Notes under the pieces: model-generated
The model's input: only the letters and a program-made list of their open reading frames with translations
Database searches by the model: none
What the model was told of the DNA's origin: nothing
Shown here: one piece after another, positions 14,025-43,812 of the stretch
Layout of the letters: every line of letters begins with the position of its first letter
Numbering within the stretch: the stretch's first letter is position 1
Translations under genes and position numbers: made by a program
From: Kiritimatiellia bacterium
GTDB taxonomy: Bacteria; Verrucomicrobiota; Kiritimatiellia; RFP12; UBA1067
Assembly: GCA_017459225.1 (NCBI GenBank)
Contig: JAFUDL010000537.1
Coordinates: forward strand, 1-46,591
Direction of reading: 5' to 3'
Length of the DNA stretch: 46,591 bases

Positions 14025-16643
14025 CTATATATGGCCACGTTTGATGATGATTGCAAGAACAGCAATGTCTGCAGGATTGACGCCTGGGATGCGTGAAGCC
14101 TGCGCAAGCGTCTCGGGCTTGTAGCGTTTCAGCTTCTCCCGGCTTTCATAACGCACGGCAGTGCATTTGTCGAGATCAAGCCAAGCGGGGAAGGAAATCT
14201 CCTCGTCACGTTTCGCCCGTGCGGCGGCAGCCTCCTCGCGCGTTATGTAGCCCGCATACCGGGCGCGTATCGACAACTGCTCAAGAACTTCTGGCGGGAT
14301 TTTGCATGCTGCGGAATCCTTACCCACCTTCTCACTCACATGTTCATTGCAATTAGCCGGGTCCGTTGCATTGCTCGCGCTATTACTTTCACCTATTTCA
14401 CAAAGGCGTTCTCGTCCATGTACTCCCGTCGCGACATCTACCTCTAGGTCATGCCCTTCATGCCCTGATGGTGGCCTTGCGGTCAACTGCTTGAGAAGCT
14501 TTGGCGACGACTCGATTTCATCGATCATCTGCTGAAAGCGGTGCGTTTCGGCGCGGATGTCGGAAGGGAGCACGCCAATGCGGTCGGCAGCGTTCGATAG
14601 GCGGTAGCGCGCATTGTCCTGGCGCAGTATCAGGCGACGCTCTGCTCGGCTTGTGAACATGCGGTATGGTTCGTCCGTACCTTTGGTGACGAGATCGTCA
14701 ATCAAGACGCCGATGTAGGCATCCTGCCGACTTAGCACGAGCGGAGCCTCGCCCTTCACGGCAAATGCGGCGTTGATTCCGGCCATGATGCCCTGAGCGG
14801 CGGCCTCTTCGTAGCCAGTGGTGCCGTTTACCTGTCCGGCGAAGTAGAGTCCGCTAATCCGCTTCGACTCTAGCGTATGCTTCAATTCGCGCGCGTCAAT
14901 GCCATCGTATTCGATTGCGTAGGCGTAGGCGAGAAACTCAGCATGCTCTAGACCGGGAACGGAATGGACAAGACGTTCCTGGACATCTCGTGGCAGGCTG
15001 TTCGAGAGACCGTTGGGATATATGATCGTTCCGGCCCTGTCTTCGGGTTCTAGCATTACATGGTGGCCAGGCGCGTCAGGGAAGCGGACAATCTTGTCCT
15101 CAATCGATGGACAGTATCTCACGCCCGTCCCGCTTATCGCCCCTCCGTAAAGCGCACTTCGGTCCAGATTCGAGCGAATGATTTCGTGTGTTTCCGCTGT
15201 TGTGCGTGTTGCCCAACAGGACATCTTCGGCTCGTTCAACGGCCATGGAGCCCTTTCTTGTGCCCACACATCATCGTCCGAAGAATGTTCATTAGTCTGT
15301 TTCCACGTGGAAACATTGTTCTTCAAGGCGGCATTTTGAACGTCCGTGATGCCGTGTTCTACGGCTGTAGTGGCGTCGTTCTTGGTCGGCTGCTCATCAT
15401 TACAATCGCCACACGCACCACGCTGGCCCCAAAAATCCGTTCCGCCGCCCGTCCGCATATCCACGGGACAACCACACCCGCCAGCTGCGCCCTTACCTTC
15501 ATCCTGTTTCCACGTGGAAACAGTCCCGCCCGAAGACCTACCCGCGCCACAGACATCACAACAATCTTCGCAACCCTCTGGCCGGGGCACATTCTGGGCG
15601 TGCAATCCGTCCGCACGTTTCCACGTGGAAACGTCGGCCTCAGGAGCAGCTGAAGAATCTGGTAATGGGTAATCGTGCGTTATATTTTCGTTATGCGTCA
15701 TAATTTCCGCGTTCAGACGATCTTGTTTCCACGTGGAAACGCACTTTTCGGGTTGTTGGACGCCGCGGTCGGTCTGTTTCCACGTGGAAACGCCGCCCTT
15801 ATCGTGTCCGATTCGCCCTGGAGTGACCGCCGCGCACAATGCGGCGGCATCACGGTATGGGAATCTTAGGCCTTCTACATGGGCATCATCTTCGCGTTTC
15901 CACGTGGAAACAGACTTGAGCAGCGCCCGTGTGCGTAGCGAAAAGTAGGGAGGATGGGCTTCAGCTGGGTGTTCGACAGTCTTGGAGAAGTCGATGGATG
16001 ACGCTTTGAGGCGCGGTGGAGTGCCTGTCTTTAGGCGGATCAGCGTGAATCCAAGGCGTTCAAGCGATGCGCTAAGCTGATCAACGGCGGGGCGTCCATC
16101 GCCGCCAGAAGGTTTCGCGTCGCGTCCGATGAAGATGCGTCCGCGAAGGGATGTGCCTGTCGTGAGAATGACGGCGCGAGCGGGGATGAAGCCATGTGCA
16201 GATGTTGTCACACCGATTGTCTGAACATGCCTTTCGGCGTCAAGAGGAGTCGTCTGAATCTCTACAACTGCATCTTCGAGCACCTCGAGATTGGTCTGTG
16301 AGGCAATTACGCGCTGCATTCTGAGGGTGTATTCTGCCTTGTCGCATTGAGCGCGTGTGGCCTGCACAGCGGGTCCGCGGCTAGTGTTTAGCGTCTTTTC
16401 CTGAAGGGCGGTGAGGTCGGCGTTGAAGCCCATTTCGCCGCCAAGAGAGTCCAGCTCAAACACCAGGTGGCTTTTGGCAAGGCCGCCGATCGAGGGATTG
16501 CATGGCATGCGGGCGATTGCCGACTTCAGGCTAGTGACGAGAAGGGTGGGCACGCCCATTCGCGCAGCTATGAGAGCTGCCTCTGCACCGGCATGTCCAC
16601 CTCCGACTACAATTATCTCTGGCTTAAAGTTCATATCGGTCAT
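14025..16643 (-). CDS. mnmG: tRNA uridine-5-carboxymethylaminomethyl modification enzyme MnmG (GidA) with a large in-frame insertion
   Basis: It carries [85 protein letters not shown] and [11 protein letters not shown]. It is 872 aa against roughly 630 aa for typical MnmG. The promoter geometry suggests an alternative start at ATG 16634 (M4). Confidence 0.95.
15299..15911. repeat. Six perfect copies of the 16-bp palindrome GTTTCCACGTGGAAAC (parS-like) inside mnmG
   Basis: Copies lie at 15299-15314, 15506-15521, 15617-15632, 15725-15740, 15776-15791 and 15896-15911. None has a mismatch and the spacers are unique. Each copy is read as V-S-T-W-K in the mnmG frame. Confidence 0.95.
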
Positions 16644-16652
16644 AGTATATCA
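16644..16652 (-). promoter_or_regulatory. Extended -10 element TGATATACT abutting the first ATG of mnmG
   Basis: The minus strand reads TGATATACT-ATGACCGATATG. The predicted +1 (about 16637) lies after the first ATG and 3 nt before the second ATG (16634). Confidence 0.35.
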
Positions 16653-16692
16653 CAACGAGTGCGGTTGGGGAAGAAGGGAGAGAGGGGGGGAG

Positions 16693-16756
16693 GTTTAAAA
16701 GTTTATAAGTTTGAAGGCTTCGAAGTATATGAGTTTCGGGGTTTGGGTGGTGGAGT
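16693..16756. repeat. Tandem 8-mer array GTTTNNNN, 8 units
   Basis: It reads gtttaaaa gtttataa gtttgaag gcttcgaa gtatatga gtttcggg gtttgggt ggtggagt. Confidence 0.8.
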
Positions 16757-16854
16757 TGATTGCAAATTGCTCTGCTTTGACGTATGTTTATTGCTTTCGC
16801 TGGTTGGAGTTTCGGAGTGTTGGAGGTTTTAAAACTAAACTCCACAGTTGAATG

Positions 16855-17276
16855 TCTCACACAGAGGCGCAGAGAGGCAGAGGGCGAAGAGAAAGATCCA
16901 AAATCAGGAGGAAAAGTTAAAGCTATGGCAGGAAGGATCTCAAGAATCTCTTTCACCTTGCCTTAACTTCGTATTGCCCACAAATCTCAATTGTTCACAA
17001 TTGCCAAATACATATTTTTGAAGCAATTGGAAGACCACGAGTCCATGATATGATGTGGCGAGGCCGCCTCGGCCTTGCTGCAAGGGCGATGGCGCTCTTG
17101 CCACATCGGGTTTTGCAACTCAACTAACCTCTTCTGCCATTTGTGAACGATAACGATGTTATCAACATTTACATTCCCGTGCGCAGTGCGGGCGGCGGGC
17201 TAATGGTGAAAACAAACGCACCCGCTCAAAGCGGGATGACCAATCATCTCTGCGCTCTCCGCGCCTCTGTGTGAGA
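16855..17276. repeat. 422-bp segment bounded by perfect 16-bp inverted repeats TCTCACACAGAGGCGC (MITE-like)
   Basis: 16855-16870 tctcacacagaggcgc is the exact reverse complement of 17261-17276 gcgcctctgtgtgaga. The interior holds TTGTTCACA-type motifs, a GC-rich hairpin (17052-17108), the GATAAC-gat-GTTATC palindrome (17149-17163) and a small hairpin (17221-17235). I did not identify target-site duplications. Confidence 0.6.
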
Positions 17277-17307
17277 TATGAGGTAATGCAAAACCTCCAA
17301 AAACATC

Positions 17308-17380
17308 TCACGCCAAGTTCGCAAAGTACGCGAAGTTCTGTTTCATGGATGACTTTGCGAACTTAGCGGACTTTGCGTGA
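17308..17380. repeat. Inverted repeat built from three 9-mers (ACTTNGCGN) per arm
   Basis: The right arm actttgcga acttagcgg actttgcgtga (17352-17380) pairs with the left arm 17308-17336 at 24 of 29 positions. The loop is 15 nt. Confidence 0.8.
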
Positions 17381-17542
17381 AACTAAAAAGCAGGTTTTGC
17401 AACTGGCTCAGAGGGTAAGTGGGGGATGGGAACGGGGACAGGAAGTGCATCGCAAAAATCAAATGCAGACATCATGGGCAATAAAGGAATTCGGAAAATT
17501 CCTTCAGAGGTGTCCTCGTAGATGTGCAAGGCCGAGGCGGCC

Positions 17543-17812
17543 TTGCCACATCGTGCATCGTGTGAGAAGGTTCACGCTGTGGGAAGGGGGGGGGATGGAC
17601 CTATGTTCAGTACAAGGCCGGGAACGGCATTGCTACATCATCGCACACATGAGAGGTAGTGGCCGTAACACGATGTGGCAAGGGCGCCCCGCCCTCGCCC
17701 TTGTGGTAAGGCTAAGGTGGCGTTGCTACATCATCCGTGCATGCGGGAGAGAAGGTAGCTGTAACACGCGATGTTGGCAAAACGAGGCTGCCGTGAGGAG
17801 GCGCACCAATGC
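17543..17812 (+). repeat. Three degenerate tandem units of about 87-93 nt, each starting TTGC(C/T)ACATC
   Basis: Unit starts are at 17543, 17630 and 17723, with a related copy at 17099. Units 2 and 3 share ttgctacatcatc, ggtag, gtaacacg and gatgt(t)ggcaa blocks. GC-rich hairpins include gatgtgcaaggcc..ggccttgccacatc (17521-17552). Confidence 0.65.
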
Positions 17813-18170
17813 GACAACTTATACAAGAGGATTTATCAACAGCAACTATAGAGTTAATAACATATACGTTATGCGTCACGGAAATTGAAGCAAAATTGCG
17901 TTTCCCCCTTTATTTACTGGGGATTGCAAAACATGGAGTCAAAATCAAGCCAAAAATATTAGATTTTTATTAAAAGTTGTCAACGGGTTATCTACAGATA
18001 TGAAACATTAAAATCTAGCCTAGTATATTAGATTTTTCATGCCGTTTTCATTATCGGCGAATGATTTCTGGGGGAGTTATGATAAGATGAAAATATCTTC
18101 AAGGATTTCTGTAGATTCTTTGGCGGCAGCGCCTACTCATCAGTGGACAAAGCCAACCAACTGTCCGTTA

Positions 18171-18209
18171 CCGCTCCAGGTCCTCCCCATACCCTGGAGC
18201 GGGTTTTTT
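18171..18209 (+). terminator. Rho-independent terminator-like hairpin with U-tract, not attached to any CDS
   Basis: It consists of CCGCTCCAGG (18171-18180), a 12-nt loop, CCTGGAGCGG (18193-18202), then G and TTTTTT (18204-18209). The stem is a perfect 10 bp. No T-run exists on the opposite strand. Confidence 0.5.
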
Positions 18210-18249
18210 ATTGTCACAGATAACAATTCGGAAAATCACGGACTTGGAG

Positions 18250-18322
18250 AATGTTGCCAATGTGGAAATGTTGCCAGTCCCAATGTTGCCAATTTCCAAT
18301 GTTGCCATTTGCAACATTTGCC
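18250..18322 (+). repeat. Four direct AATGTTGCCA motifs (periods 17, 14, 16 nt)
   Basis: It reads aatgttgccaatgtgga aatgttgccagtccc aatgttgccaatttcc aatgttgccatttgc. The first 44 nt match the inverted copy at 13942-13986 at 41 of 44 positions. Confidence 0.85.
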
Positions 18323-18338
18323 CCTGTTGCAGCCGAAA

Positions 18339-18367
18339 GCCTCTGCCTCTCTGCGACTCTGCGTTAA
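18339..18367 (-). repeat. REP-like element copy (TTAACGCAGAGTCGCAGAGAGGCAGAGGC on the minus strand)
   Basis: 18349-18367 is the same 19-mer family as 3094-3112 and 3131-3149. 18340-18355 is the exact 16-nt reverse complement of 16868-16883 (cgcagagaggcagagg). The two copies therefore bracket the non-coding island in inverted orientation. Confidence 0.8.
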
Positions 18368-18408
18368 AATCCAAACGAGGAGTTTAGGGTAAACGTTATT
18401 ATTTCTAC

Positions 18409-18443
18409 GCACTAGACACTATACACTATATTCCCTAATCCCT
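18409..18443 (-). repeat. Tandem heptamer array (AGGGATT AGGGAAT ATAGTGT ATAGTGT CTAGTGC on the minus strand)
   Basis: The period-7 array overlaps the last seven codons (..SGIREYSV) and the TAG stop of the NUDIX gene. It shares TAGGGAATA with the heptamer array at 25041-25113. Confidence 0.7.
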
Positions 18444-25315: not shown

Positions 25316-25822
25316 ATGGAAAAAAAGAAAGTACAGATTCTTGCACCGCTTGTGGCGGTGGTGTGTTTGCTTGCTTTCGTGGCTTTTGAGGGCTGCGAAA
25401 GGAAGCCAGATGAGTCTGTGCTGCAAGGCAGCGGCGGCAATGCCAGCAACCAGGTGTATGTGTCGCGCACCGAGGACCCCGCCTACAGCAAGGCGCTTAA
25501 GGATCAAGTTGCGCAGCAGAAGCGCACGGCGATGGCCCTTGCGAAGATCAAGCGGCAGATGGACGATCTGAAGGAGCGTGCGCGTGCGAAGCTGGGCAAG
25601 GACGCCACGGAGGAGCAGATCAAGGCCGAACTGGACGGCAACCCCGCGAAGTACGCGGGATGGAAGCTACTTGTCGACGCGTACGCGAAAGCGAACGCGA
25701 AGATGGAGAAAGAGTTGGCTGATGTGCGCGGCATAGTGCGGCGACGCATCGAAAAGGAGGCGGCGGACCAAAAGGCCGTGGCCGAGGGGAAGGCGACGGC
25801 GGTGCCCGTTGCCTCTAAATGA
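25316..25822 (+). CDS. Small coiled-coil lipoprotein, function unknown
   Basis: The start is moved to ATG 25316 (MEKKKVQILAPLVAVVCLLAFVAFEGC, lipobox-like). The rest is Lys/Ala/Glu-rich helical sequence. The stop lies 35 nt before the giant gene start. Confidence 0.6.
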   Translation: MEKKKVQILAPLVAVVCLLAFVAFEGCERKPDESVLQGSGGNASNQVYVSRTEDPAYSKALKDQVAQQKRTAMALAKIKRQMDDLKERARAKLGKDATEEQIKAELDGNPAKYAGWKLLVDAYAKANAKMEKELADVRGIVRRRIEKEAADQKAVAEGKATAVPVASK

Positions 25823-25857
25823 CGGACGGAAGAGATTCAACGGAAGGAAGCGGCAAC

Positions 25858-28800
25858 ATGAAGACAAAGAAAACGCTTGGCATATTGGCGATGGCGCTCA
25901 CCGCGCTCGCGTGCGCCCTGCCGCGCACGGCCGAGGCTGCGGGCGACATACGCTCGATCGAGGTTTACTCCGACGCGGAGACGGTGGACCGCACGTTCCC
26001 CAACCTGAACGAGCCGCTCGTTGCAGGCGAGACGGTGAAGTTCAAGATCCGCACAGTCAACCGCCGCCGCGGCGACGTTGCCCCCGATGCAGCGCCGGAT
26101 CCCGATCAGTGGAGGAATCCGTGGTCGCTCCAGCATGTGGGCCCCAACGATCCGATTGCGGACACCAACAACATGCCGCAGGTGGGTCTGTGGGTCAGCG
26201 GTCAGGTCAGATACGCGAAGATAGAGTCGCTTAGGCAGTCCGACGATGGATTCTTCACGGACTTCATCTGCTCCTACGTTGTGCAGCGCGGCGATCTCGC
26301 AATGCCGCTCAAGCTCGTCCGTCCCGACGGAAAGGGCGAGGCGATGAGCGTCAACGGCCAGGGGTACAGCGAGTCGTACTACATGCTCAACGAGTCGCTT
26401 TGGAACTTCTTCCCCGCGGTCAACAGCGGAGTTGCGTACAAGAACGCAAATCAGCTCCAACTTTTCTTCGGCGAGCAGACTCTTCAGAACGGCGGTTATC
26501 ACCAGAGCGTCGTGACGGCCGATGCAACCTACAACAACATCCGCGACTACGACCTCAGCCTGGCCGGCATCTACATCCAGGCAATTGACTTCGACAGCAC
26601 CACCTCCGAAGACACAACCGCCAGCGGCGCCACCATCTGGCGCAACATCGCCGCCAACTCTACCACCGCGACTCCCGCGATGCCTCGCCTCGCCATACCG
26701 GGCGGCAGCGCAAAGGAGCAGACGCTCTATGTGTGGACGAAGGATCCCACCATCGCGGAAATGGCGAACGGCACCGAAACCGAGTACGCCTTCATGGACG
26801 GTGTGACTCGCAAGGTGAGCAAGATCTCCATCAAGCCCAACGACGAGCTGGTCACATTCCGCGTCAAGGGCCTCCGGGAAGGATTAGACACCGAAATCTT
26901 CATGGCCGCCACGCCCACCAACGTCTACAACGCCGCCGGTGTGATGCTCACCAACTTCACATGGCGCACGATCCACATCACCAAGGCCCTGCCGCCCGGC
27001 ATGACGGTGGAGATCGATCCCGACGAGGTGGCAACCTCCGCCGACTACAAGACTTCCGTCGCCGCCATCAACCTCAACCTCACCCAGGCCTGGACGAACG
27101 ACGAAGACCTCGTGGTGCACCTCATTCCGACGATGAAGGACGATCCCTCTGTCGATCCCTGGAAGTACATCGGCGTGTCGACCATCGGCAGCGGTAAGGA
27201 CGAGTACAGCAAGCGCGAGCTCACCATGACCATCCACAAGGGAGACAGCTCCGCGGCTGAATCGGGCAGCATGCTCTACCTCTACGCGAACAGGGCCGAC
27301 GCGCTCACGCTCAAGGGCATCCAGTTCGCCGTCGACGAAAGCGCGCTTTCAGATCGGGCGCGTGCGTTCTTCACAGGCACCTTCACGCCCGGCACGGTGA
27401 CGATCGACTACGCCGGCGGTGCGCTTCAGGTGGTGTTGCCAGAGGAGAACAAGGAGTTCTTCGGCATACCCGGCAACGTGGAGCATCCGTTCACCGTTGA
27501 AATCACCGATGTCATCGGCGAGCTCAACGACACCGGCAACTATACCGTCTACTGGGACAACAACGGCAGCGGAGCGTACGCAGTCATCTCCGGTCTTACC
27601 GCCAACAACGGCAAGCTCACCGTCCCCCGCCGCTATGTCACCGCCACTCTTCCGGGCAATCCCTACCACTCCAAGTTCTACGTCATGAACTCCGGCGGCG
27701 CGAGGTCGCCCGAGCGTACGATTCTCGTGAACGTCGATGCCCCCAAGACCATCACGGCGACTCTTGACAAGGGCGTGGCCAACTATCAGGAAGGCGAGAC
27801 CGCAAAGGTCACGTTCGACTTCTCCGCAGAGTTCCAGGAGAACAACGGCCAGCCTGGCTACCTGTTCATCTATCCTCTCGACGAGACGACCTCGAATCTG
27901 GTCACCATCGCCTCGCAGAGCGGCACAGGCACGAGCGTGAGCGTGTATCCAGGCTATGCCTCCGCCAACTCACAGGCGTCGATTCTGCTGAAAGACGGCT
28001 ACAATGGCTGCACGCTCAGCTTCGGCGTGGAAGTGCGCGAGTCGAACGACAACTCCCTGGACAACATCATCGGAGCCTGGGTTGGCAAGCAGTTCTTCAT
28101 CAATGTCACCAATGTGCTGCCCCGCGTCTCCTACATCTCGATGAACGACACGCCCGTCAAGAACAGCGGCGGCACGTTCACCGCCGCAGTGCCGATGGGC
28201 GTGCAGAAGACGTTCTCCATCGGCATCGCCGATCCCGGCGTCAACTACTTCGACTTTGAAGACGAGAACAAGGCCTACACCGAACTGCGCTTCTGGGAGA
28301 ACGGCGAAGTGGTGGAGAAGAAGGTGATCAAGGGCGCACCTGCCGGCAAGAGCGTCAGCCACACCTTCAGCAACGCGGGCAATGCCCAGGTCACCGCCAA
28401 GGTGCGCGACAAGGACATGACCGACCAGGAGTTCGACGAGGCACCCGAGTTCGTCGTGAACGTCACCGTGATCGATGCGCCTGCCATCTCGCTCTCGCCG
28501 GCGCTCGGCGACAGCGTTTTCGATGAAAGCGCAACTGGTCCTGTAAACGGCCGAATCAACGTCGAACTGAACGTGCCGCCTACCGGCCTCGACGTGAGCG
28601 AACACATAACGGTGGAACTGTCGGTCACGCGCAACGGCGCCAACGACGGAATGCTCCCCGTTCTGAACCGCTACGAGATCGAGTTCAAGAACGGCCAGAA
28701 GACCGGCTTCTTCTACTTCAGTGAACTTGACGGCACGCCTGAGAGCGAGAACAAGGGCTTCAGGATCAACGCATGGGTCAAGGAGACCACCACCAGCACG

Positions 28801-31800
28801 GCCGACCCCAACAAGACATGGCGCCAGTACTATCAGCCTGTGACTGATTTCGACGTCTTCATCCGCAACATGGAGCCTGAGATCGGTCCTGGCGCTGATC
28901 CCTCCACGAACGCGCAGCCTGCCGCGCTCAACGTGCCGTTCAACATCATATGGAACGTGAAGGATGTTGCGGCCGACCAGGCGAACATGACGGTGACATG
29001 GAGCTACAACGGCTCGTCCCAGACCACCACGCAGCCCGTCACCAGCACATACAGCAAGCAGATTCTCTTCACTAGCGCCGGCCACAAGGAGGTCACGCTC
29101 ACGGTGCAGGACAAGGACGGCGGAACCGACACCCGCACCTGGTACTACAAGGTCGATCCTTCGATGGGCCTTGAGATCACGCCTCGCCGTCCGAACACAG
29201 GCGCACTCTCCGCGTTCTCGCAGAAGTACACAGGAGCCGTGGGCATAGGCGCGGGCCGTGTGTGGTCGACGTCAACCGACTATCCAACCCGCGTGAGCAA
29301 CTTCACTCAGTACTGGGACTTCCAGCCTGCCAACGACCTCAACCCGAAGATCTACGCATACGGCTACAAGGTTGGCGACAGGGACAACGGCAGTCTCGGC
29401 CCGGCAGGCAGCCGCGACTACGCAGTCGACAACGCCGGCACATGGTACAACCAGGCCTCCTACTACGGTTCCTACTACACCTACAATCCGGGCAACGGCA
29501 AGGACAGCTACTTCTACTGCTGGCTGTACTTCGACGTTGAGGAGAACAACTCCACCCACCTCAGCGGCACCGTGCAGCCGGAGGTCGGCACATCCACGGG
29601 CGAGAACCGCGTGCAGATGCCTGAGCAGGATGAAGAGGCTACGTCCTATCCGCGTACGATGGTGGAGGCCATCTTCTCCGTCGAACGCGACCCCGAGGAC
29701 AACGTGGGCGACATCAACCAGGACGGCATCCCCGACGTATATGCCGCCAACACCACGTGGAACGGCGGGCGCCTCTTCCAGTTCGCGGGGTACGAACTCG
29801 AAGAGGGCGGAGACCTCATGAACCTCGCAGGGGTGAACGACGATGGCGACTACCTGCCCGCGACAACCGCCAGCGGCGGCGCGCTTGTGGAGAACGTCCA
29901 GAACTGGCCGCGTCTCGGCGGCGATTTCACGGCCATCCTCGAGATCCGCGGCTTCCACAAGGGCCTCAACTTCCGTGCCGACAATGACGGGCTCAACCGC
30001 AACGTGCGTGGAGCCTGGATCTCCATTCCCTCGTTCTCCGAGGCGGAGTCCAACGCAATCGCCCGCGTGAACAACCTCTGGGTTGATGACACCGACGAGG
30101 AAGGCAACGCGATTCGCCGTCTGCCCAACCCGGAGAACGCCGCCGAGGTGGCCAACTGGACCGCGGGCCTCAACAGGGCTGACAGCTGGATCCCCGAGAA
30201 GCGTACCGACCCGACAATGGAGGACACCGACCAGGACGGCTTCCCGGACGGCTATGAGTACTTCTTCTGGTACAGCGCAATGGTTGGCGTGGATGGCATC
30301 GACAATCGTCTGCGCGGCTCCAAGTTCACCATCGACGACATTGCAACGGGCGAGGAGCTGACCCCCGAGGAGATCGCTGCCGCGTTTGATCCGACTGTTG
30401 CCGCCGACGGGAATCCCGACAGGCGCGACACCGACAACGACGGCCTTACCGATCTTGAGGAGTATGCGCTCGGCACCAACCCGATCAACTGGGACACCGA
30501 CGGCGACGGTCTTTCCGACTTGTGGGAGATCATGCGCGGCATGAACCCCGTCAAGGCCGACAGCGCCAACAACGGCGGCATGAACGCCGACGGCGACTTC
30601 ATGGCCTACTGCGAGACCGATCCCGAATATGCCATCGTCAACATCGAAGGACTTGGCGAGTTCGCCATTCCGAACGACGGCGGCAGTTACATCACGATGG
30701 ATGGCGACACGTGGAAGTTCACAGACGGCGTCACCAACGTGAACGCGATCGCGGTGTTCCGCTATGGCAAGCCTGATGCGATCTGCGTGCCGAGAAACCG
30801 CGGCACGGCCGGGCTGCCGCCCCTCTCCGCGACTTCGCTTCTGCTCGAAGGCAACACGAACATCGTCTCCGTCGCCCTCGGCCAGCCCCTCGCGCTCATC
30901 CACGATCAGGTGTACAACCAGTTCGGGTTCGATCCGCGCACAGGCTGGTTCATTAACGACCACGGCTTCCTTGGCAGGCGCTGGGAGCCCAACTCCGTGG
31001 TGGCGGGTTCGAGGTTCTTGAACGGCGCCGGTGAGCCCGTGAACACCAAGGCCTACACGGCGCGCGACGAGTACCTCCTCCTCAAGTACCGCTACGAGGC
31101 GACGCCCGCGATGGAGGGCTGGGACGAAGACGCCGGCGAGGCGTTCGTCTTCTCCAAGGCGGCCGACAAGGCGCTCTGGAACGACAGGACTCAGCGCCAC
31201 CACGAGCGCGTGTTCCGCCGCGGCACCACCAACCCGAACGTTGCCTACGAGGAGCGCGTATGGGTGACGGAGTCCATGAACGGCCAGAACTACGCGAGCG
31301 AGAACCATGGAGCCGACACTGACGGCGACGGCGTGCCGGATGGATGGGAGCTCTACGTAGCCCACAACCCGAACGACAACCGCGCTGCCGACACTGCTGA
31401 CGGAGACAACGACGGCCTCAACCTCGTGAGAGAGTACGCAGGCACAGACTCCTGCAATGCGTACGCGGCGTGCGAGAGCATCTATTCCCAGCATCCTGGC
31501 ATTGCAAGCGGCTGGTTCAACAAGTTCTTCCCGACTGACCCGAACAATGCCGATACCGACGGTGATGGACTGGACGACGGCGAAGAAGGGGCTGCCTGGA
31601 TTGGCACATGGGTGTACGGCAAGTCCACCTCGCTTCAGGGCCATCGCTTCACCTTCATTTATGGCGACCGTGACGGCATGCCGGCTGAAGAATTTGCCGA
31701 TCCCAACAACCGAGAGCTCTGCATCCGCGGCGGCGGCTTGAACCCGTGCACGGTCGATACCGACGGCGACCTCCTGCCTGACGCGTGGGAGAGGCAGTTC

Positions 31801-34800
31801 GCAGGCATCCTCTTCGACGCCTCCGCCTCGCCTGTCGGCGCCGATCGCGACGATGGTGTGATTACGATGATCCGTCGCGGCGATGGTCTTGGAGCCGAAG
31901 GCGCTACGGCAGCAGGATTCTACATCACGGGCGGCATGGACGGCACGTATGGCGCCGATGCATATACGCTTTCCCCAGGAGGTGCGTTCTTCGATGGTTC
32001 GTCGAGAGACCCGCGTACCGGCACAAGGCGCGATTTCGACTTCGACCACGACGGACTCCAGAACTTCCAGGAGTATCTCGTGCAGTCGCTGCGCCATCTC
32101 CGCTTCGACGACAGCGAGACGCCTCTGATGGGCAGCTGGATGCCAGACGGTCCCCAGGGTTCGCGCAAGTTCGTGCGCTTCCTGCCCATGAACATCATGG
32201 ACGGCGACACCTTCTACAAGATCTGCAAGGACAATGGCTTCGCAGCCACTGGAGCCTGGCAGTTCGAATATCTCGGCTATTTCGTGCAGCCGCCCAGGGA
32301 GTGGGACTGGGTGCGCATCAACAACTACACAGAGTTCATGATGAACTATGACGAGTTGGGATATCGCGTGATGCTCATCCCTGCGGCCCTTGACCCGAAC
32401 GGCCAGCGCATGTCTGCTCTCGGCTACCTCACCACCGATCCGCGCAAGTGGGATACAGACTCTGACGGCATGGACGACTTCTACGAGCTGTTCCACGGCC
32501 TGAACCCGCTGCTCGGCAGCGTGCAGGACGGCACGCTTGACTATGACATCATCGGCCAGCAGTACATGGGCATGATCAACCACTGGTATAATGGCTGGAC
32601 GGCCTGGCCGCAGATGCCCTGGAACGGCGAGGAGCCCAAGTTCGACGCAATCGCCTATCCCTGGATGATGGGTGCGCCCGAGGCTGATGCCGACGGCGAT
32701 GGACTGAGGAACAACTCCGAAGCTCTGCTCGTGAACATGACCTCGCCGATGCCCACGCACACCGACCCCACTCCGTTGTGGTACACCGACTCCACCGCCC
32801 TCAACAATGCGAGCTACACAGTCCAGTACTACCAGCTTGATCCATACGCTGACAGCCCAGACTTCATGATGTATCCGTGGTCTTGGTCCGTTGGAAGCGG
32901 CAAGACGATGGAAGGCTCGACGTCGGGCACCTTCATGTACTCCTTCGAGGAGAACGAGGGCTACGACACGGACAACGACCGCATCGCCGACGCCGACGAG
33001 CGTGCTATGACGGGCAATGCCATCTCTGATCCGCTCAAGTTCTCCGATCCCGACCGCCGTCAGGCTCTCTGGTTCCCGGGTTCCGAGTCCGCCGCTGTTT
33101 CGTACTCCGGCTACTTCCACCGTCCGAACGGCGATCAGTACGACGTGCTGCGCCAGTTCACAGTCGAGGCCTGGATCTGCCCCGAGGACCTTGAGCGCGA
33201 GCAGGTGATTCTCGAGCGCGTGGCCAGATACACGTCCTCCACCTATCAGAACAACGAGGCGCAGGTGCGCGCCAACTTCCGCATCGGCATCAAGGCCGAC
33301 GGCCGCGTGTATGGTCTGTTCGACACTTCGGATGCCGTTCCCTCCGGAATTGGTCCTGGTTCGCCAACGGTTGTTGGCACCGTTCCCGAGGCCGGCAAGT
33401 GGCAGCATGTTGCCCTCACCTACGACGGCAAGGAGCTGAAGCTGCATCAGGATGGTCGCGTCTCTGGCATTACCGCGACCTCGCTAGAGCCCGCGAATGG
33501 TCTCGTGGTGCTGCAGCAGGAAGCTGTGATCGGAATGGAGAACTTCCCCGTTCTTGAGAACGGCTACTTCAACCTGCCTTGCGCGTTCGTGCTTGGCGCG
33601 CAGGCCATGGATGAAAAAGCGATCGGCCTCACGCCCGAAACCGAGTGGGCCAGCTACTCGAACTTCTACCAGGGCTATATCGACGAAGTCCGCGTGTGGG
33701 ACGGCGTGCGCTCGCTCAGCGAGATCAAGGAGTCCTACAAGAAGCGCATGAGCTTCGATGACGTTGCCGCGCAGCGCGAAGAGGTGTACAATGCCTGGTT
33801 GAGAGGTGCCACCCGCAACGACAACGACGGCAAGGAGATGCTGCCCGCCGAACTGCTGCAGCACTATGCGTTCCAGGCTCTCCCCGGCGCCGTGAACGCC
33901 ACGGACGTTCTCTGGGAACCCGCTGGATTCACGAAGTGCGTGTTCGACAACGTGCGCGACATGGACGGCGTGCTGCCCGCCGGCACCTTCGAGGTAGGCT
34001 GGTGGAGCGCTCTGCCCGTGCGCAGCACCGTGTACGAGAACTACCGCTGGGTGCCTTGGATCCAGAATACATGCGGTCACCTGCCGTTCATGGACGGCTC
34101 CTGCGCCGACTCGCGCTACTGGAGCGAGTTCTTCGGCGGCACTGCCTCCGCGCAGGAGGTCTATAACGACCGTAATCAGGCGAACACCGACGCCCAGATT
34201 CTGGCCCTTGGCGAGGTCAAGAAGATCCTATTCTCGAACACCGCGCATCCTTATTCAATGTACAACTACAGTTCCGAGCGGTTCTATCACGAATTCTTCC
34301 TCAACTACATGGCGGAGGCCGATTCGAACTTCCAGACGAACAGCACGCTCTATGCGTTCGAGATCCGCAGCGGCTTCGTTGGCACTTCCGACCTCGTTCC
34401 GTTGGGCGGCGCGTTCGCCAAGCGCACAGAACAGATGTGGGATGGCGACGGCGCGGCTGACGCATGGGAGGTCACGGCCGACGGCGACTCTGCCCTTGCC
34501 GACATCGACGGCAACGGAATGCCCGACTGGTGGCAGGAAATTGCGATCGCAAGGTATGGCGCGCCTGAGGACTTCGACTGGGCTTCTCTTGTGAAGTGGC
34601 CCGATGCCTCCGGCACGGAGATGACGGCGCGCGAGGCGTATCTGCGCGACATCGCAAGCGGCATGCTGCCCGGCGGCGTGACGGAGACGGTGTTCGTTGA
34701 CAAGCGCGACACTGACAAGGACGGAATGCCTGACTGGTGGGAGCGTCTCAACGGCATTGCGGATGAGACCGCCTATGGCGACCATGACAACGATCAGCTC

Positions 34801-37800
34801 TCCAACTACGCCGAGTACCTCATTTCCGAGGGCTTCGTCAAGTACGGCTTCCCGGCCGTCAGCCCGATCAAGCCGAACACGTTCGGACAGGGCGTGCCTG
34901 ACTACTTCCTGCGCGTCGGCTCGCTCTACCTCGGCCAGATGTTTGCCGACGGCGACATGATCAGCGACATCTGGGAAGACCAGTTCGGCGTAGACGTGGC
35001 CTCGCGCGGCCTGTGGGACGCCCATAAGGACGCCGATGACGACGGATGGAGTAACTGGGCAGAGTACCAGGCCGGAACGCGTCCGGATCTCGAGGCCATT
35101 CTTGGCCCTGATGGCTCCACGCTTTCCGAGTACCCGGTGCCCGTGATCGAGGCGAGCGTGGTGTACAACGGAAAGAAGGACTTCTCGAGCGCGGTTGTCG
35201 TGCAGGCTTGGTCGCAGTCCAACAGGGGCGACAAGCAGATGACGGGAATGCCAGACGCTTCCTGGACGATTCCTGCGCCGGGTGCGGCGGTCGAGAAGAC
35301 GCATGTCTTGGGCTCCAACAGAGGCCGAGTGGTCAACTTCAGCCTTGGCCCGGGAGCAGTCGAGCCTGGAAGCGTTGAGATCCGCTTCAAGGACCTCAAC
35401 TCCCAATGGCGTTGGCAGGGCGAGTACCATGCCGAAGAGATGGTGCGCGACTGGAGAAACCGCTTCAACGACAGGAAGCTTGAAGGCACTGACGAATTCG
35501 GCGAGATGCTGGTCGATGGCGTAAAGGTGGGCGACATCAACTACGTCACCGGCAGCGTAACGATCGACTTTGGAGTGGACGATCTTCAGAACCAGTGGCC
35601 GTTCCTCGTGGCGATGGACGATCAGCACGCGGTCTGGGAGGTTCTCGACCTCAAGAACTCCTATGTGATGGTCAGCTGGAGAACCCAGAAGGTCAACGTG
35701 GGCAATTCGGGCAGGTTCTACCTCTCCTGGTCCGACGAGAACGCCGTCAACGGCGGTGGCGATAACAACAATGGCGGTGGCAACGACAACAGTGCGGCCG
35801 GTCTCACGAAGTACGGCCATCTCCGCGAGGGCAAGAACATGTTCATCGCCTTTGCCGACATGGACGGCAACGGCGTGTGGACGCCAGGCGAGCCTCTCGG
35901 CGTCGCGGCCGACGTTGACGTGGGCTGGTCTTCGGCCTCGTTCTCGGTGGAGCTCACGGACGTCGCGCCGCAGATGGCGCGCATGAACATCTCCGGCCTT
36001 ACTGCTGCGGCAGACTTCGGCGCGGCGGATGCGCTTACCGACCGCAGCGCGACTGTAAACGGATACTACTATTCCAACCAGTCTCTGCAGACGGCATTCC
36101 GCATTCTGCAGACCGAAGACGGCGACGACAATGGTCTTGGTGGCGGAACGGATGTAGGGGGTACTCAGGCCGAGGGCAGGCCTGCCGCCAACGCAACGAG
36201 CCGAATCCGCGTGATCCGCACGGCCGTCAACGGCGAACTGGGAGTTGGCGACGTGCTGTACAACGGAGTGGTGCTTGACCGCGAGATCTATCTCGGCGGC
36301 CACCCGATGCTGACCGAAGCGGACCTTGTGGCCGATGGCCTCCTCGACCTCGACTGGGGCACGCTCACCGCTGCCTGGCAGTCCACGCACAACGGTTCTG
36401 CCATCACCACCAGTCTCACTAACGCCACGTACCGTGTGCTCTACGGCAACGGTTCCGCGGAGAAGTGGACGTTTGACTCGTTCGCCGCGGTCACGTTTGT
36501 GAACGCATACGAATACGGACGTACGCAGACGGCCGCAGTGCCGGTGGCGCCCAAGGGCACAACTCAAGGCGCCACGGTTACGTTCAAGTGGCGTCACGAG
36601 GCACTTGACGCGAACGGCTACAAGATCAAGGACTACCCGGCGTTCCGCCTGCAGGTGCTTGACAGCTCCGACACGGTGGTGTACGATTCCGGCAACAGGC
36701 GTGCGCCTGCCCGCAACTCGCAGGGCGTGTACAGCTGGACGGCTCCGCTCTACGACGGAATGGTCACCGCAAAGGGCCATGTGTTCTCCTCAAAGCAGAG
36801 CTACAAGTGGCGCGTCTCGATGCTCGACGCCAAGTTCACCAGTCCGAACTGGGCTACGCAGGAGTTCCGCGTTGAGGCCTCCGGCATGATGAACGATGGT
36901 CGCCGTCTTGGCGCAATCGCCGCGAACGTGAGGTACTTCGGTCCGATCTTGGACAAGGTCTCCAATAAGGCCTCTAACATCCAGAACCTCATCCACGTGC
37001 AGGCGTTCACCTCGCCCGACTTCTCCGGCGTGCCTGTGTCGGAGGGCTGGGTGTCCAACGTGACTGATCTCGCATCGCAGAGCGTCGAGGGCGTCAATGC
37101 CGTAACGCTTGCGGTTCCTGCTGGCACCTACTACCTCTGCGCGTACATCGACACGAACGGCAACTTCAAGCGCGACAGCTGGGAGAGCTGGGGCTACGCC
37201 AACGGCATCGGCGGCAGCGATCCCGATGTGTACAAGCCGGCAAAGGTCGTTATTGAGGAGCCCAGCTCCGCCGTGCCCTGCGTGACGATCTTCATCGAGG
37301 ACTGCGACACCGACCAGGACGGCTTCCCGGATGCGTGGGAGTACGTGACCAACGGTTCGCTTGCCACCCAGGGTTCCGCAGGCGGAAACACTTTCTTCAC
37401 GAAGGTCAATCCGAACCTGCTCGCGACGGTCCAGGCCTACAGCAACCTCGGTCTTGCCCAGCTCGCAACGGGCAGCGACTATGTGGTGCCCAGGCTCATG
37501 AGCGTGCTCTCCGGCGATGACGCCGCCAGCCTCGCGATGGCCTATCTGCTGAGCGGCGGAACGAATCCTGACGATCTCGCGCCAGAGATGGAGGTGAAGG
37601 TCGATTCGTTCAGCACCGAGGGCGGAATGAAGCTCATCATCTCCTGCGAAACGAAGCCAGTGACGGGCGGAAGGCTGCTGGCCGCCGTTCCTGATCCCGA
37701 GTTCGAGATCGTGCTCCTCTCGAAGAAGGCGCTCTCCGACGAGTCCTGGACCGAGACCGTTGCAGGAAAGGTTACGGTGCCCGCGAACGGCAAGGTGGAC

Positions 37801-37881
37801 GTTTCCACAGAGCTTCTCAACCTCACGGTGAAGGCCCGCAAGGAAGCTGGCGACCAGTTCTTCAAGATCAAGATCCGCTAG
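25858..37881 (+). CDS. Giant (4,007 aa) secreted multidomain protein: PKD/Ig-like modules, at least 16 thrombospondin type-3-like calcium motifs, one LamG domain
   Basis: The likely start is ATG 25858 ([27 protein letters not shown]), preceded by GGAAGGAAG. PKD-like blocks occur near 28360-28430 and 29068-29130. DxDxDG/TSP3 motifs run from 29707 to 33015 and from 34498 to 35090, with others near 35850 and 37298. A LamG block lies at about 33050-33750 (ALWFPG...[12 protein letters not shown]...[13 protein letters not shown]). It ends in a tandem TAGTAG stop. Confidence 0.9.
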   Translation: [4007 protein letters not shown]

Positions 37882-41318: not shown

Positions 41319-42038
41319 ATGAAGCTTAAAACAATCGCATTCCTCACGCTCGCAGCCGCGTGCGCGTTTTCAGTCTCGGCTCAGTCGATGCGCCGTCGCG
41401 GTGCAGCTGCTAGCACAGAAACGACCAATGCCCGTGACTCCTACGTTTCGATCGACATCCCCGCCCGCCCGGGTGGCACCTGTCTCGCTAGCGCCCCCAA
41501 CCTCCAGGCTAACGGCAAGCTTCTCCCTCCGCTCGGCGGACGTCCGCGCCAGTGGATTGTGCTTGAGACTAAGTACACTACAATGGCAAAGTGGCAGGAC
41601 GAGCTCACATTCACCTGGCATGTGCTTCTCGACTCCTCGAAGGCCAAGGAGAAGGATCCGCGCAATCCTCCAGCGCCCTATTCCTACTACACCGCGCAGG
41701 TGCGCTACGTCGACATCAAGAAGGGCAGCCACATGGCGAGCGTCTGCCTGCCGCCCAACGTGCTCGAGCGCTTCGGCGAGCCCTGCACCGTCACGCTGAT
41801 CATCACGAACAAGGACGGCGAACAGCTCGCGATGCACACCGAGAACCAGGACAGGAACGCCGCCTCTGCCGCGCAGGGAGCCAACGGCAAGTGGTGGGAG
41901 AACGACAAGTTCATGAGCTGGCAGAGGACGGTGAACGGCGAGCAGAAGAACCAGGTGGAGCGCCGTCAGGGGCTGGTGGATCGTTCAAAGACGCCGTTCT
42001 GGCTCGTCAACAACGCCGACTACGAACTGGTGCAGTAG
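41319..42038 (+). CDS. Secreted hypothetical protein at the head of the pilus-like cluster (position of Amuc_1102-type proteins)
   Basis: It has the signal peptide MKLKTIAFLTLAAACAFSVSAQ and a strong AGGAG ribosome-binding site. I recognise no motif. The assignment rests on synteny only. Confidence 0.6.
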   Translation: MKLKTIAFLTLAAACAFSVSAQSMRRRGAAASTETTNARDSYVSIDIPARPGGTCLASAPNLQANGKLLPPLGGRPRQWIVLETKYTTMAKWQDELTFTWHVLLDSSKAKEKDPRNPPAPYSYYTAQVRYVDIKKGSHMASVCLPPNVLERFGEPCTVTLIITNKDGEQLAMHTENQDRNAASAAQGANGKWWENDKFMSWQRTVNGEQKNQVERRQGLVDRSKTPFWLVNNADYELVQ

Positions 42039-42087
42039 CCAGTGCCTTCTCAAAGCTTTCAAGTACGCACACTTAGAAGACTGAACC

Positions 42088-43812
42088 ATGTCTCGAATCC
42101 TCACATTAAACATCGGCGCCTCGAAGGCGGTTCTTGCCGAGTATTCGCTCGGCGGTAAGGGCCGCCTCACGCTGACGGGCTACGGCAGCGGCGAACTGCC
42201 CGCAGTCGACGTCAACGACATAGGCTCTCTTGGCGCCACTCTGCCGCAGGTGCTTCGCCAGATAATGCGAGAGAAGGACATCCATCCCGCGCCGCTCGTC
42301 GTGTCGCTCGGCGGCCAAATGGTGTTCCCGCGCTTCGCGAAGTGTCCACCCGTAGGTGAGCTCGAGCAGCAGGTTCGCTATGAGATCGAGGAGAACGTGC
42401 CGTTCCCGATCGACGAGATCGTGAGCGACTACCAGTTCCTCGGCAACATGGCCGACGGCGACAAGGCCGTGATGATCGTTGCGGCGAAGGTGGAGGCCGT
42501 TCGCGCGGTGACCGACGCCGTTCGCGCGGCAGGCCTCAAGCCCACCGTTGTCGACGTCTCGCCCGTCGCGATCTGCAACGCGCTCAAGGTGGCGTATCCG
42601 CAGCTCGAAGGCTGCTCTGTTGTGCTTGACGTTGGCTCGAAGACCACGAACCTCATAATCCTCGAGGGCGAGAAGGTCTACAACCGTTCGATTCCGATCG
42701 CCGGCAACACCATCACCAAGGACATCGCACAGCAGTTCGGCTGCTCCTTCGAGGAGGCAGAGCAGGTGAAGCTTGAGCGCGGCTATGTGGCGCTCGGTGG
42801 CGTGACGGAGGATGAGGACGAGGTTACCGACCGCATCTCGAAGATAATCCGCACTGTGCTCACGCGTCTGCACGCGGAGATATCGCGCTCCATCAACTTC
42901 TACCGCTCGCAGCAGGGCGGCAGCGCTCCAACGCGCCTCTTCCTCACGGGCGGCACCGCTCGCCTTCCGCAGCTCGACCAGTTCTTCATGGACGCGCTGC
43001 AGGTCGACGTGCAGTACCTCAATCCGTTCGGGTCCGTGGCGTTCGGCTCAAAGATCAACAAGGCCCAGTTTGAGGATGATGCATTCGCTCTTACGGAAAG
43101 CGTGGGCCTTGCGCTGCGCGGCGGCGACAATGCGTGGATATCGATAAACCTCCTTCCGCCGGAGCTCGTGAACGAAGCGCGCGCGATGAAGCGCATTCCG
43201 TTCCTCGTGGCGGGCGGTGTGGCGTTTCTCGCCGCTCTTGGCGTGGGCTGGATGCTTGAGAGCGGCGGAGTGGAGAAGGCAAAGGCAAAGCTCGAACGCG
43301 TGGAGAGCCGCAACCGGTCGTTGAAGTCGCTCGATACGAAGCTCAAGGCAGAGCAGAAGGCAGAGCAGGAGGTTCGCGGCAAGTGCGACGAGTTCCAGCA
43401 GCTGCTGATGAGCCGTTCGGCGGCGCTGCGCCGTCTGCAGGACGTGCGCCGCAGCCTTCTGGACGGCATGTGGATCACGGAGTGGAAGGCGCTTCCGGCG
43501 GAAAAGGACAAGCCCGAGGCCCGCGAGGCCGTGATGGTGACTGTGCGTGGCTGGCGCGACGCGATGGAGAAGGCCGAGGCCAAGTGGGCTGAGGACAACG
43601 GCGGCAAGGGCTCCACCGTGGCCGAGATTGTCATGTCCAAGATCAAGCGCAGCGCGGAGTTCGTGCCGGAGAGCGTTAAGATCGACAAGCAGAGAAGCGT
43701 GGAGGGATGCCTTACCGAGTTCACGCTGCTAATGCAATTGGCACCGGCCCCCAGCATCGTGCCCGAGAACGAGAAGGAGAAGGGCCGTAAAGGAAAGGGG
43801 ACGAAGAAATGA
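42088..43812 (+). CDS. PilM-like actin-fold ATPase fused to a PilN-like transmembrane/coiled-coil module
   Basis: The N-terminal 350 aa or so look like PilM/FtsA (ILTLNIGASKAVLAEY, VVDVSPVAICNA, VLDVGSKTTNLIIL, LFLTGGTARLPQL). A transmembrane segment (IPFLVAGGVAFLAALGVGWML) and a coiled coil follow. Confidence 0.75.
   Translation: MSRILTLNIGASKAVLAEYSLGGKGRLTLTGYGSGELPAVDVNDIGSLGATLPQVLRQIMREKDIHPAPLVVSLGGQMVFPRFAKCPPVGELEQQVRYEIEENVPFPIDEIVSDYQFLGNMADGDKAVMIVAAKVEAVRAVTDAVRAAGLKPTVVDVSPVAICNALKVAYPQLEGCSVVLDVGSKTTNLIILEGEKVYNRSIPIAGNTITKDIAQQFGCSFEEAEQVKLERGYVALGGVTEDEDEVTDRISKIIRTVLTRLHAEISRSINFYRSQQGGSAPTRLFLTGGTARLPQLDQFFMDALQVDVQYLNPFGSVAFGSKINKAQFEDDAFALTESVGLALRGGDNAWISINLLPPELVNEARAMKRIPFLVAGGVAFLAALGVGWMLESGGVEKAKAKLERVESRNRSLKSLDTKLKAEQKAEQEVRGKCDEFQQLLMSRSAALRRLQDVRRSLLDGMWITEWKALPAEKDKPEAREAVMVTVRGWRDAMEKAEAKWAEDNGGKGSTVAEIVMSKIKRSAEFVPESVKIDKQRSVEGCLTEFTLLMQLAPAPSIVPENEKEKGRKGKGTKK

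Follow-up and report, generated by a model that had tools for sequence, protein, structure and literature searches.

A predicted lineage-specific parS array within an in-frame insertion of mnmG in a Kiritimatiellia bacterium

The mnmG gene and its palindrome-bearing insertion

The stretch of DNA analysed here, hereafter the window, comprises the 46,591 nucleotides (46.6 kb) of contig JAFUDL010000537.1 from a Kiritimatiellia bacterium (assembly GCA_017459225.1). Within it lies an intact mnmG (gidA) gene, the coding frame of which is interrupted by a long in-frame insertion that carries six exact copies of the 16-bp palindrome GTTTCCACGTGGAAAC. The setting of these copies, their mode of evolution and the company that the same 16-mer keeps in other phyla suggest that they are probably a chromosomal centromere array, i.e. 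a set of parS sites predicted to be recognised by the partition protein ParB. The features concerned are as follows.

14,025–16,643, minus strand: mnmG (gidA) coding sequence, 872 amino acids, intact (Pfam and structure matches)
15,246–15,923 (approximate), minus strand: palindrome-bearing in-frame insertion of ~225 codons, residues ~241–466 (structure alignment)
15,299–15,314, unstranded: palindrome copy 1, GTTTCCACGTGGAAAC, extending to the 18-bp TGTTTCCACGTGGAAACA (exact match)
15,506–15,521, unstranded: palindrome copy 2, GTTTCCACGTGGAAAC, extending to the 18-bp TGTTTCCACGTGGAAACA (exact match)
15,617–15,632, unstranded: palindrome copy 3, GTTTCCACGTGGAAAC, flanked by C...G and extending to the 18-bp palindrome CGTTTCCACGTGGAAACG (exact match)
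15,725–15,740, unstranded: palindrome copy 4, GTTTCCACGTGGAAAC (exact match)
15,776–15,791, unstranded: palindrome copy 5, GTTTCCACGTGGAAAC (exact match)
15,896–15,911, unstranded: palindrome copy 6, GTTTCCACGTGGAAAC (exact match)

The identity of the 872-residue product as MnmG/GidA is given by its Pfam matches (GIDA at 3e-142, plus SAM_GIDA_C) and by its match to solved MnmG structures at 1e-149. The GIDA domain is found in two parts, residues 10–241 and ~470 onward. Comparison of the enzyme core with that of a 90% identical orthologue gives a ratio of non-synonymous to synonymous substitution rates (dN/dS) of ~0.10, which points to strong purifying selection on this part of the protein. Structure alignment places the insertion at what in Aquifex MnmG is a loop of ~6 residues between positions 253 and 260, and its edges are marked by the conserved motifs FSLRT and APWP. 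Its length is hypervariable among relatives, such that whole proteins range from 656 to 964 amino acids. In an AlphaFold2 model, residues 248–472 have a predicted local distance difference test score (pLDDT) of 22–30 and no secondary structure; the model is poor overall (mean pLDDT 52.6) and was used only for the relative confidence of the insertion, which is its lowest-confidence part. The insertion is thus probably disordered. It occupies a surface loop of an essential enzyme and, since the sequence of its spacers is only weakly constrained, the coding frame merely tolerates it. The idea that the insertion might be an intein was rejected, as the only Pfam families found in the open reading frame (ORF) are those of MnmG itself and none lies in the insertion. 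Likewise rejected was the idea of a mobile element, there being no Pfam family in the insertion and the similarity ending at the palindrome. A second, smaller insertion of ~60 residues (~717–778; window 14,310–14,495) is present in the C-terminal helical region of the protein, has low pLDDT and is without palindromes.

With regard to the palindromes themselves, the six exact copies starting at 15,299, 15,506, 15,617, 15,725, 15,776 and 15,896 had been picked out in the initial annotation and were recovered by a scan of the window, for which shuffled sequences give a chance expectation of 0. Its statement that the window holds no other full copy also stands, no seventh GTTTCCACGTGGAAAC being present in the 46.6 kb even at 2 mismatches. 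The extension of the first two copies to TGTTTCCACGTGGAAACA was confirmed, and the third copy was found to give a different 18-bp palindrome. The spacers had been described as dissimilar to one another, and this is borne out save for a few bases flanking each palindrome and a single weak 15-nt match in two copies (80% identity), a short spacer family of a kind often due to chance.

All six copies lie inside the mnmG ORF in one codon phase, are read as the peptide VSTWK and stand 207, 111, 108, 51 and 120 nt apart, each distance being divisible by 3. This regularity had been taken as a sign that a DNA-level element was specially accommodated in a reading frame. The common phase and the spacing in multiples of three are as described, but the special accommodation is superfluous: every in-frame duplication adds a multiple of three, so that a constant codon phase follows without any peptide-level reason.

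Selection on the DNA rather than the peptide

The 120 closest homologues of this MnmG are proteins of Kiritimatiellae-type metagenome-assembled genomes (MAGs), 54–97% identical to it and within the same range of lengths, 656–964 amino acids. Nearly all of them contain VSTWK, one to six times per protein, at the same insertion point. For the codon test, orthologue DNA was fetched by protein identity and not by the motif. In these orthologues 23 of the 24 VSTWK instances are encoded by exactly the codons GTT, TCC, ACG, TGG and AAA (GTTTCCACGTGGAAA) followed by C; indeed, only CAx or CGx codons follow the motif, and the base in front of it is mostly T. The GC content of the orthologous genes runs from 0.44 to 0.61 (five measured), yet the VSTWK codons are nearly constant. 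Over all loci collected, and among the matches listed, the exact 16-mer is present in 112 of 121 distinct VSTWK instances, the remaining nine differing by one synonymous transition (ACG to ACA), and the codon combinations in use number two of a possible 192.

The rates of substitution agree with this. Against the 90% identical orthologue the enzyme core has dN 0.012 and dS 0.127, the insertion spacers dN 0.16 and dS 0.42 together with many indels in multiples of three, and the palindrome codons dN 0 and dS 0.044. In other words, the spacers evolve ~13-fold faster than the core in which they are embedded, and against a 70% identical orthologue they are saturated. Across 47 Kiritimatiellae-type MnmG loci (~396 kb; among the matches listed), all 133 copies of the palindrome lie inside the mnmG insertion, the codon phase of VSTWK is constant in 132 of 132 copies and no GTTTCCACGTGGAAAC occurs outside mnmG. 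Since the motif itself served to retrieve many of these loci, the inside count is biased, whereas the absence from the flanks is not; four copies flagged as lying outside mnmG are alignment-boundary artefacts or belong to a non-Kiritimatiellae locus.

A sister lineage (P0033 and P0046) provides a natural replacement of the site. Here the insertion lacks VSTWK and has instead four instances of CATWH, each encoded by an exact copy of another palindrome, TGTGCCACGTGGCACA, at the same mnmG insertion point and in the same codon phase, while the synteny of mnmG, exchanger, dnaA and dnaN is kept. The copies are located as follows.

L228 1,585–1,961 in MAG GCA_024712465.1: four exact copies of TGTGCCACGTGGCACA, read as CATWH (exact match)

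It appears, therefore, that the type of site has been switched in concert in all copies within the class. A peptide motif would not be swapped in every copy for another perfect palindrome, whereas binding sites that track a changed binder would be, and concerted change is the outcome that would be expected from a co-evolving, trans-acting DNA-binding protein. Taken with the invariant codons and the fast spacers, the presence of a different palindrome at the same place indicates that selection acts on the DNA 16-mer and not on the VSTWK peptide, as had been proposed from the window sequence, and that VSTWK-type sites in the mnmG insertion are conserved across the class. The alignment of mnmG orthologues, a check that the initial annotation had put forward, gave the pattern expected of it: the palindromes are kept, the spacers drift and the orthologous insertions carry the palindrome.

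The same palindrome beside parA–parB in other phyla

A scan of one genome per species returned at least 119 eight-kb blocks with the 16-mer; the number of chance matches is estimated at ~140 in 596 Gb, and many single matches in high-GC genomes are at chance level. A metagenome scan for the 18-mer served as a second source, and the parAB loci from both scans were pooled. The motif stands just upstream of soj/parA–spo0J/parB in blocks from Omnitrophota, Planctomycetota, Elusimicrobiota and ‘Makaraimicrobium’, and often falls in the gap that separates parA from the 3′ end of mnmG, dnaA–dnaN being a few kb off; Gemmatimonadota are also among the phyla with the motif upstream of parA–parB. Among the matches listed, the motif is upstream of parA in 30 of 30 chromosomal-type loci, at a distance of 8–630 bp (median ~60 bp), and canonical GTTNCACGTGNAAC is absent from these parAB loci at up to 1 mismatch. 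Variants such as GTTTTCACGTGAAAAC occur beside the motif in the parAB loci, and from this co-occurrence a family consensus of GTTT[C/T]CACGTG[G/A]AAAC can be written.

Two loci fetched through their ParB proteins offer a check that is free of ascertainment by the motif. The first, from Omnitrophota, lacks canonical parS and carries the exact motif at a distance of 56 bp upstream of parA; it is an origin region of the dnaA–dnaN/rpmH–rnpA–yidC–jag–parAB type. The second, from a Gemmatimonadales MAG (L231 9,134–9,178), shows GTTCCACGTGGAAAC and ATTTCCACGTGGAAC upstream of parA, both of them hybrids of one canonical half-site of 7 nt and one lengthened half-site of 8 nt; the ParB encoded beside them keeps R173 and has K204. 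On the evidence of these sequences, the same 16-mer is linked to parAB in other phyla, and the earlier reading of the palindrome as a parS-type centromere site is supported by its position in all 30 loci and by the lack of canonical parS there.

The 16-mer was also encountered in settings of a different kind. In the Planctomycetota MAG SJ778 (L045 5,971–6,277) four exact copies lie upstream of a plasmid-type ParA, the accompanying ParB having 469 amino acids and a SopB-like helix-turn-helix (HTH), and an integrase and a restriction enzyme of the MmeI type lying next to them. The same site appears to serve here in the partition system of a mobile element or secondary replicon. Burkholderia sp. 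Ac-20353 has four exact copies (L109 250–785), and no partition gene or informative Pfam match was found among the ORFs beside them. Three exact copies in a Burkholderiales MAG (L070 920–4,613) share their contig with KfrA, an integrase and HipA, which is a plasmid or integrative and conjugative element context.

The site sequence and the contact residues of ParB

Canonical parS is also written TGTTTCACGTGAAACA. The inner 12 bp of the Kiritimatiellae palindrome, TTCCACGTGGAA, are identical to those of the Pseudomonas and Myxococcus parS, TGTTCCACGTGGAAC(A/G), for which binding is known from experiment, and the difference resides in the outer part of the half-site, which is GTTTCCAC here versus TGTTCCAC in canonical parS. 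The site of the lineage is accordingly T-GTTTCCAC|GTGGAAAC-A, and the change in each half-site is either one extra T or a swap of the outer TG to GT, these being two equivalent descriptions. The palindrome had been introduced as canonical parS with one extra base pair per half-site; this is a valid description, albeit that TGTTCCACGTGGAACA with its outer TG swapped to GT is an equally valid one. A likeness to the Noc-binding site had also been noted. The TTTCC/GGAAA arms are indeed common to both, but the likeness is superficial, the centre of the Noc site being CCCGGG against CACGTG here.

In the structure of the Caulobacter ParB–parS complex, R173 hydrogen-bonds to guanine 1 of the parS half-site; R173 is invariant in parS-specific ParB proteins and R204 is a conserved contact residue (PMC7383237). 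It is precisely these residues that differ in the ParB proteins adjoining the motif. ParB proteins with solved structures, which recognise canonical sites, have the pattern GK[S/A/E]R...GHAR, whereas the motif-adjoining ones have GK[D/N/G/K]K...GHAK in 116 of 120 Omnitrophota-like proteins and in most of those derived from the loci, and GKDR...GHAK in 120 of 120 Gemmatimonadota-like ParBs, which is to say that one or both of the residues equivalent to Caulobacter R173 and R204 are replaced by lysine. The shifted base of the site and the ParB residue predicted to contact it therefore appear to change together, which is covariation and not proof of binding. In this regard, all chromosomal Par systems are said to have the canonical 16-mer in common (PMC5450999). 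No paper on the exact 16-mer was found in the searchable literature, nor anything relevant on parS in the Planctomycetes–Verrucomicrobia–Chlamydiae (PVC) group, Omnitrophota or Gemmatimonadota.

Proximity to the replication origin

In relatives the gene order is a long intergenic region, mnmG, a Na/H-exchanger–EIIA gene, dnaA and dnaN, with dnaA 3–4 kb downstream of mnmG. On the contig of the window ~20 kb of other genes intervene, and dnaA starts ~20 kb downstream of mnmG, at a point ~5.9 kb before position 1 of the window. Leftward from 16.6 kb as far as dnaA, all called genes but one, an FG-GAP gene, run on the minus strand; rightward from ~18.9 kb, genes run on the plus strand over a distance of at least 38 kb that extends to polA. 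Between the two lies the stretch at which the GC skew turns positive.

16,644–18,418 (1.8 kb), unstranded: gene-poor stretch of lower GC (0.47) directly upstream of mnmG, candidate replication origin (oriC)

ORFs in this stretch have no Pfam match. The only two instances in the window of the DnaA-box-like TTATCAACA (8 of 9 positions) are at 17,159 and 17,833, both within it, against an expectation of 0.11 for the window, and the complement, TGTTGATAA, recurs in five of six orthologous intergenic regions; the canonical DnaA box TTWTNCACA is absent from the window and from most related loci. With moderate confidence, then, oriC may be placed between 16,644 and 18,418, ~1 kb from the array. The array is origin-proximal, as had been surmised from the identity of the gene alone, given the distance to dnaA on the contig and in relatives, the DnaA-box-like motifs and the switch in gene orientation upstream.

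Several further elements were observed in this region. Upstream of mnmG, at 18,250–18,309, there are four tandem copies of AATGTTGCCAAT with a spacing of 15–17 bp, perhaps an array to which a protein binds. Inverted repeats rich in GC, GCAAGGCCGAGGCGGCCTTGC between CACATCG and CGATGTG, are found at 17,043–17,112, 17,524–17,555 and 17,663–17,735; the putative origin region has three to four of them, and they have the look of repetitive extragenic palindromic (REP) elements or protein-binding hairpins. At 18,171–18,212 a terminator-like hairpin, CCGCTCCAGG-N11-CCTGGAGCGG, is followed by TTTTTT. Its loop motif, GGGGAGGAC, is kept in four of six orthologous intergenic regions and the hairpin has no Rfam match; a small RNA that lacks annotation may end here. 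At the gathering threshold, Rfam gave only a transfer RNA, and sub-threshold matches to eukaryotic microRNAs and small nucleolar RNAs in the upstream intergenic stretch were dismissed as chance.

Interpretation and alternatives

The overall emerging picture is that the six palindromes are, with good probability, a lineage-specific parS array, that is a group of predicted ParB sites, housed in a tolerated and probably disordered coding insertion. Every part of the initial annotation's interpretation that could be tested held. Mechanistically, each palindrome would be recognised by a ParB-family dimer, upon which ParB would load as a sliding clamp dependent on cytidine triphosphate (CTP) and then spread, so that the partition complex, which also loads the structural maintenance of chromosomes (SMC) complex, would be built beside the replication origin. 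The array itself may have grown by in-frame duplications in multiples of three, hence the single codon phase, after which the spacers would have diverged while the palindromes stayed fixed. For the Kiritimatiellae lineage, binding of the array by ParB is a prediction from sequence.

A number of observations weigh against this interpretation. The canonical parS consensus TGTTNCACGTGNAACA is absent from the window, also when up to 2 mismatches are allowed. Neither ParB nor ParA is encoded in the window or in the 10 kb that flank it on each side, and tblastn with Spo0J and Soj found no parAB within 10 kb of mnmG in Kiritimatiellae-type loci, such that the linkage of site and parAB found in other phyla is absent over that distance in the lineage itself. 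Moreover, searches of protein databases with the ParBs adjoining the 18-mer led to ParBs of Omnitrophota and Gemmatimonadota and to none from Kiritimatiellae. The collection scans were partly motif-selected, and the distribution of the site is that across loci rather than across whole Kiritimatiellae genomes. Finally, in MAG CASFZN01 (28% GC) the 16-mer is dispersed in at least 18 copies, flanked by A and T tracts and mostly just past gene 3′ ends (L003, L017, L022, L025, L066, L074, L081–L083, L101, L102, L110 and others), which means that the sequence is not exclusively centromeric. In this MAG it folds at −13.5 kcal/mol, as a terminator that acts in both directions would. Among the matches listed, the 426-kb contig has 12 copies, all of them at 78–352 kb, around dnaA (~231 kb). 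The copies in this MAG may be terminators, parS sites or both.

The alternative that survives best, though it is unlikely, is that the palindromes are bound by a dimeric protein other than partition ParB, such as a transcription factor, a nucleoid-associated protein or a Noc/KorB-type paralogue, in which case the array would have another role in the origin region, for example in replication control, origin tethering or silencing. The failure to find a Kiritimatiellae-lineage ParB in the searched loci would fit such a binder, as would the departure of the site from canonical parS, and ParB-fold proteins that serve other roles and bind other sites are on record. It is harder to reconcile with the identical 16-mer standing directly upstream of bona fide parA–parB in four other phyla (all 30 of the loci among the matches listed), with the altered recognition helix of the neighbouring ParB, and with an inner 12 bp shared with parS sites that are known from experiment to be bound.

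Far less probable is it that the palindromes are paired, inverted DnaA boxes (TTTCCAC being akin to TTATCCACA), forming a titrating or reactivating cluster of the datA/DARS kind. By our own alignment the half-site agrees with the DnaA-box consensus at seven of nine positions, and the array does lie beside a putative origin and near dnaA. A strictly kept, perfect palindrome of 16–18 bp is, on the other hand, atypical of DnaA boxes, and the palindromes do not consist of repeated TTATCCACA 9-mers. Furthermore, the motif tracks parA, always upstream of it, even where the neighbours are not dnaA; the TGTGCCAC of the sister lineage is further still from a DnaA box; and TTATCAACA in the intergenic stretch is the better candidate.

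Marginally less credible again is the idea that the palindromes act as hairpins in RNA or DNA, of the terminator, attenuator or REP-like kind, or are remnants of a small mobile element. This finds its footing in CASFZN01, where the A and T tracts, the position at gene 3′ ends and the folding energy are those of a terminator, and in the AAA...TTT flanks that are frequent in Omnitrophota. The hairpins of the copies in the window are weak by comparison (−8 to −10.8 kcal/mol), lack a sense-strand U tract and fall within an essential ORF, so that the character of an intrinsic terminator or REP element is seen in one unrelated low-GC MAG and not in the window; nor are terminator stems conserved in sequence across phyla. 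As for mobile elements, the similarity ends at the palindrome and there are no other copies in the 396 kb of related loci, among the matches listed.

Effectively excluded is the possibility that VSTWK is a functional peptide motif of an MnmG insertion domain with the palindrome incidental to it, for, although all copies are in a single reading phase and VSTWK is kept at the protein level in more than 100 homologues, only the two codon combinations given above are used, the bases that matter to the palindrome and not to the peptide (C always after the AAA of lysine, T usually before the GTT of valine) are also kept, the same 16-mer is conserved in non-coding DNA of other phyla, CATWH arises from a different palindrome in the sister lineage, the spacers evolve almost neutrally and are predicted to lack structure, and constant phase is automatic with in-frame duplication.

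Beyond this locus, there is perhaps an even chance that the predicted parS array is one instance of an arrangement that holds for the whole class (Kiritimatiellae and close relatives), in which the centromere would be an expandable cassette of two to six non-canonical parS sites in mnmG beside oriC. Site and ParB recognition helix would have co-evolved away from a parS taken to be universal, the 16-mer being common to Omnitrophota, Planctomycetota and Elusimicrobiota, with hybrids in Gemmatimonadota and a second switch, to TGTGCCACGTGGCACA, within the class. Two aspects would be new, namely a non-canonical chromosomal parS common to several little-studied phyla, with ParB contact residues that covary, and, in the Kiritimatiellae, the housing of a whole origin-proximal array in a hypervariable, in-frame and probably disordered insertion of mnmG. 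The usual description of chromosomal parS is that of one universal 16-mer (PMC5450999), and searches for centromeres in genomes depend on that consensus; if the proposal is true, several large and mostly uncultured phyla use another site that such scans miss. The series of sites (16-mer, hybrids and TGTGCCACGTGGCACA) would then be a natural series for change in ParB–parS specificity, and the ParB changes at R173 and R204, positions that experiments mark as specificity-determining or DNA-contacting, would be the natural counterpart of laboratory work on switching specificity from ParB to Noc. Similarly, a cis-acting chromosome element would be stably lodged in an essential gene by means of a disposable, disordered loop, and variation in the length of a housekeeping enzyme would reflect selection on DNA rather than on protein. 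In practice the motif is a marker of the origin region in Kiritimatiellae MAGs.

Other loci in the window

Two further loci in the window deserve mention. An ORF of 4,020 amino acids (4,007 as called on the contig) at 25,819–37,881 has Laminin_G_3 and bacterial thrombospondin-type repeats, and shows a local GC skew that runs counter to that of its surroundings. At 41,319–46,051 there are genes for Amuc_1102-like, PilM/FtsA-like, Amuc_1100-like and TSP3-repeat proteins, with a secretin beyond the window, a cluster that resembles the pilus-associated locus of Akkermansia.

Comparison with known systems

Chromosomal parS, the site of ParB/Spo0J, is TGTTNCACGTGAAACA in Bacillus and most bacteria and TGTTCCACGTGGAACA in Pseudomonas and Myxococcus. 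Its presence in coding sequence is known, the founding site of B. subtilis being within spo0J. Like chromosomal parS, the sites of the mnmG array are perfect palindromes with a CACGTG centre that are multi-copy, origin-proximal and, in related phyla, linked to parAB. Unlike it, the array has all the sites of the region gathered in one hypervariable in-frame insertion that is dedicated to them, within a single essential gene.

Clusters of several parS sites are usually spread over both intergenic and genic DNA. In Myxococcus xanthus 22 putative parS sites are reported near the origin and in Pseudomonas aeruginosa four origin-proximal ones; the mnmG array is similar in having several close sites near oriC that would act as one centromere region (PMC3899335; PMC4368675). 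It differs in that two to six sites, 39–207 bp apart, are confined to one ORF and one codon phase and have been replaced in concert in a sister lineage.

In Burkholderiales, secondary replicons and plasmids have Bsr-type centromeres, each a perfect palindrome of 16 bp that is rich in T at its 5′ end and has CG in the middle of a 6-bp core (PMC5450999). The palindrome considered here has the same traits, and the exact 16-mer is also found at the plasmid-type parA and SopB-HTH ParB described above (L045). In contrast to Bsr-type sites, the context of the array is chromosomal, beside dnaA, and the partners in other phyla are homologues of chromosomal-type Soj/Spo0J.

Lastly, Noc is a member of the ParB family with specificity residues Q173, K179, K184 and R201, and its binding site, ATTTCCCGGGAAAT, has the same TTTCC/GGAAA arms (PMC7383237). 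The proteins linked to the motif, unlike Noc, have K or R at position 173 and G at 201, and the centre of the site is CACGTG rather than CCCGGG. The gene to which the motif is linked is parA.

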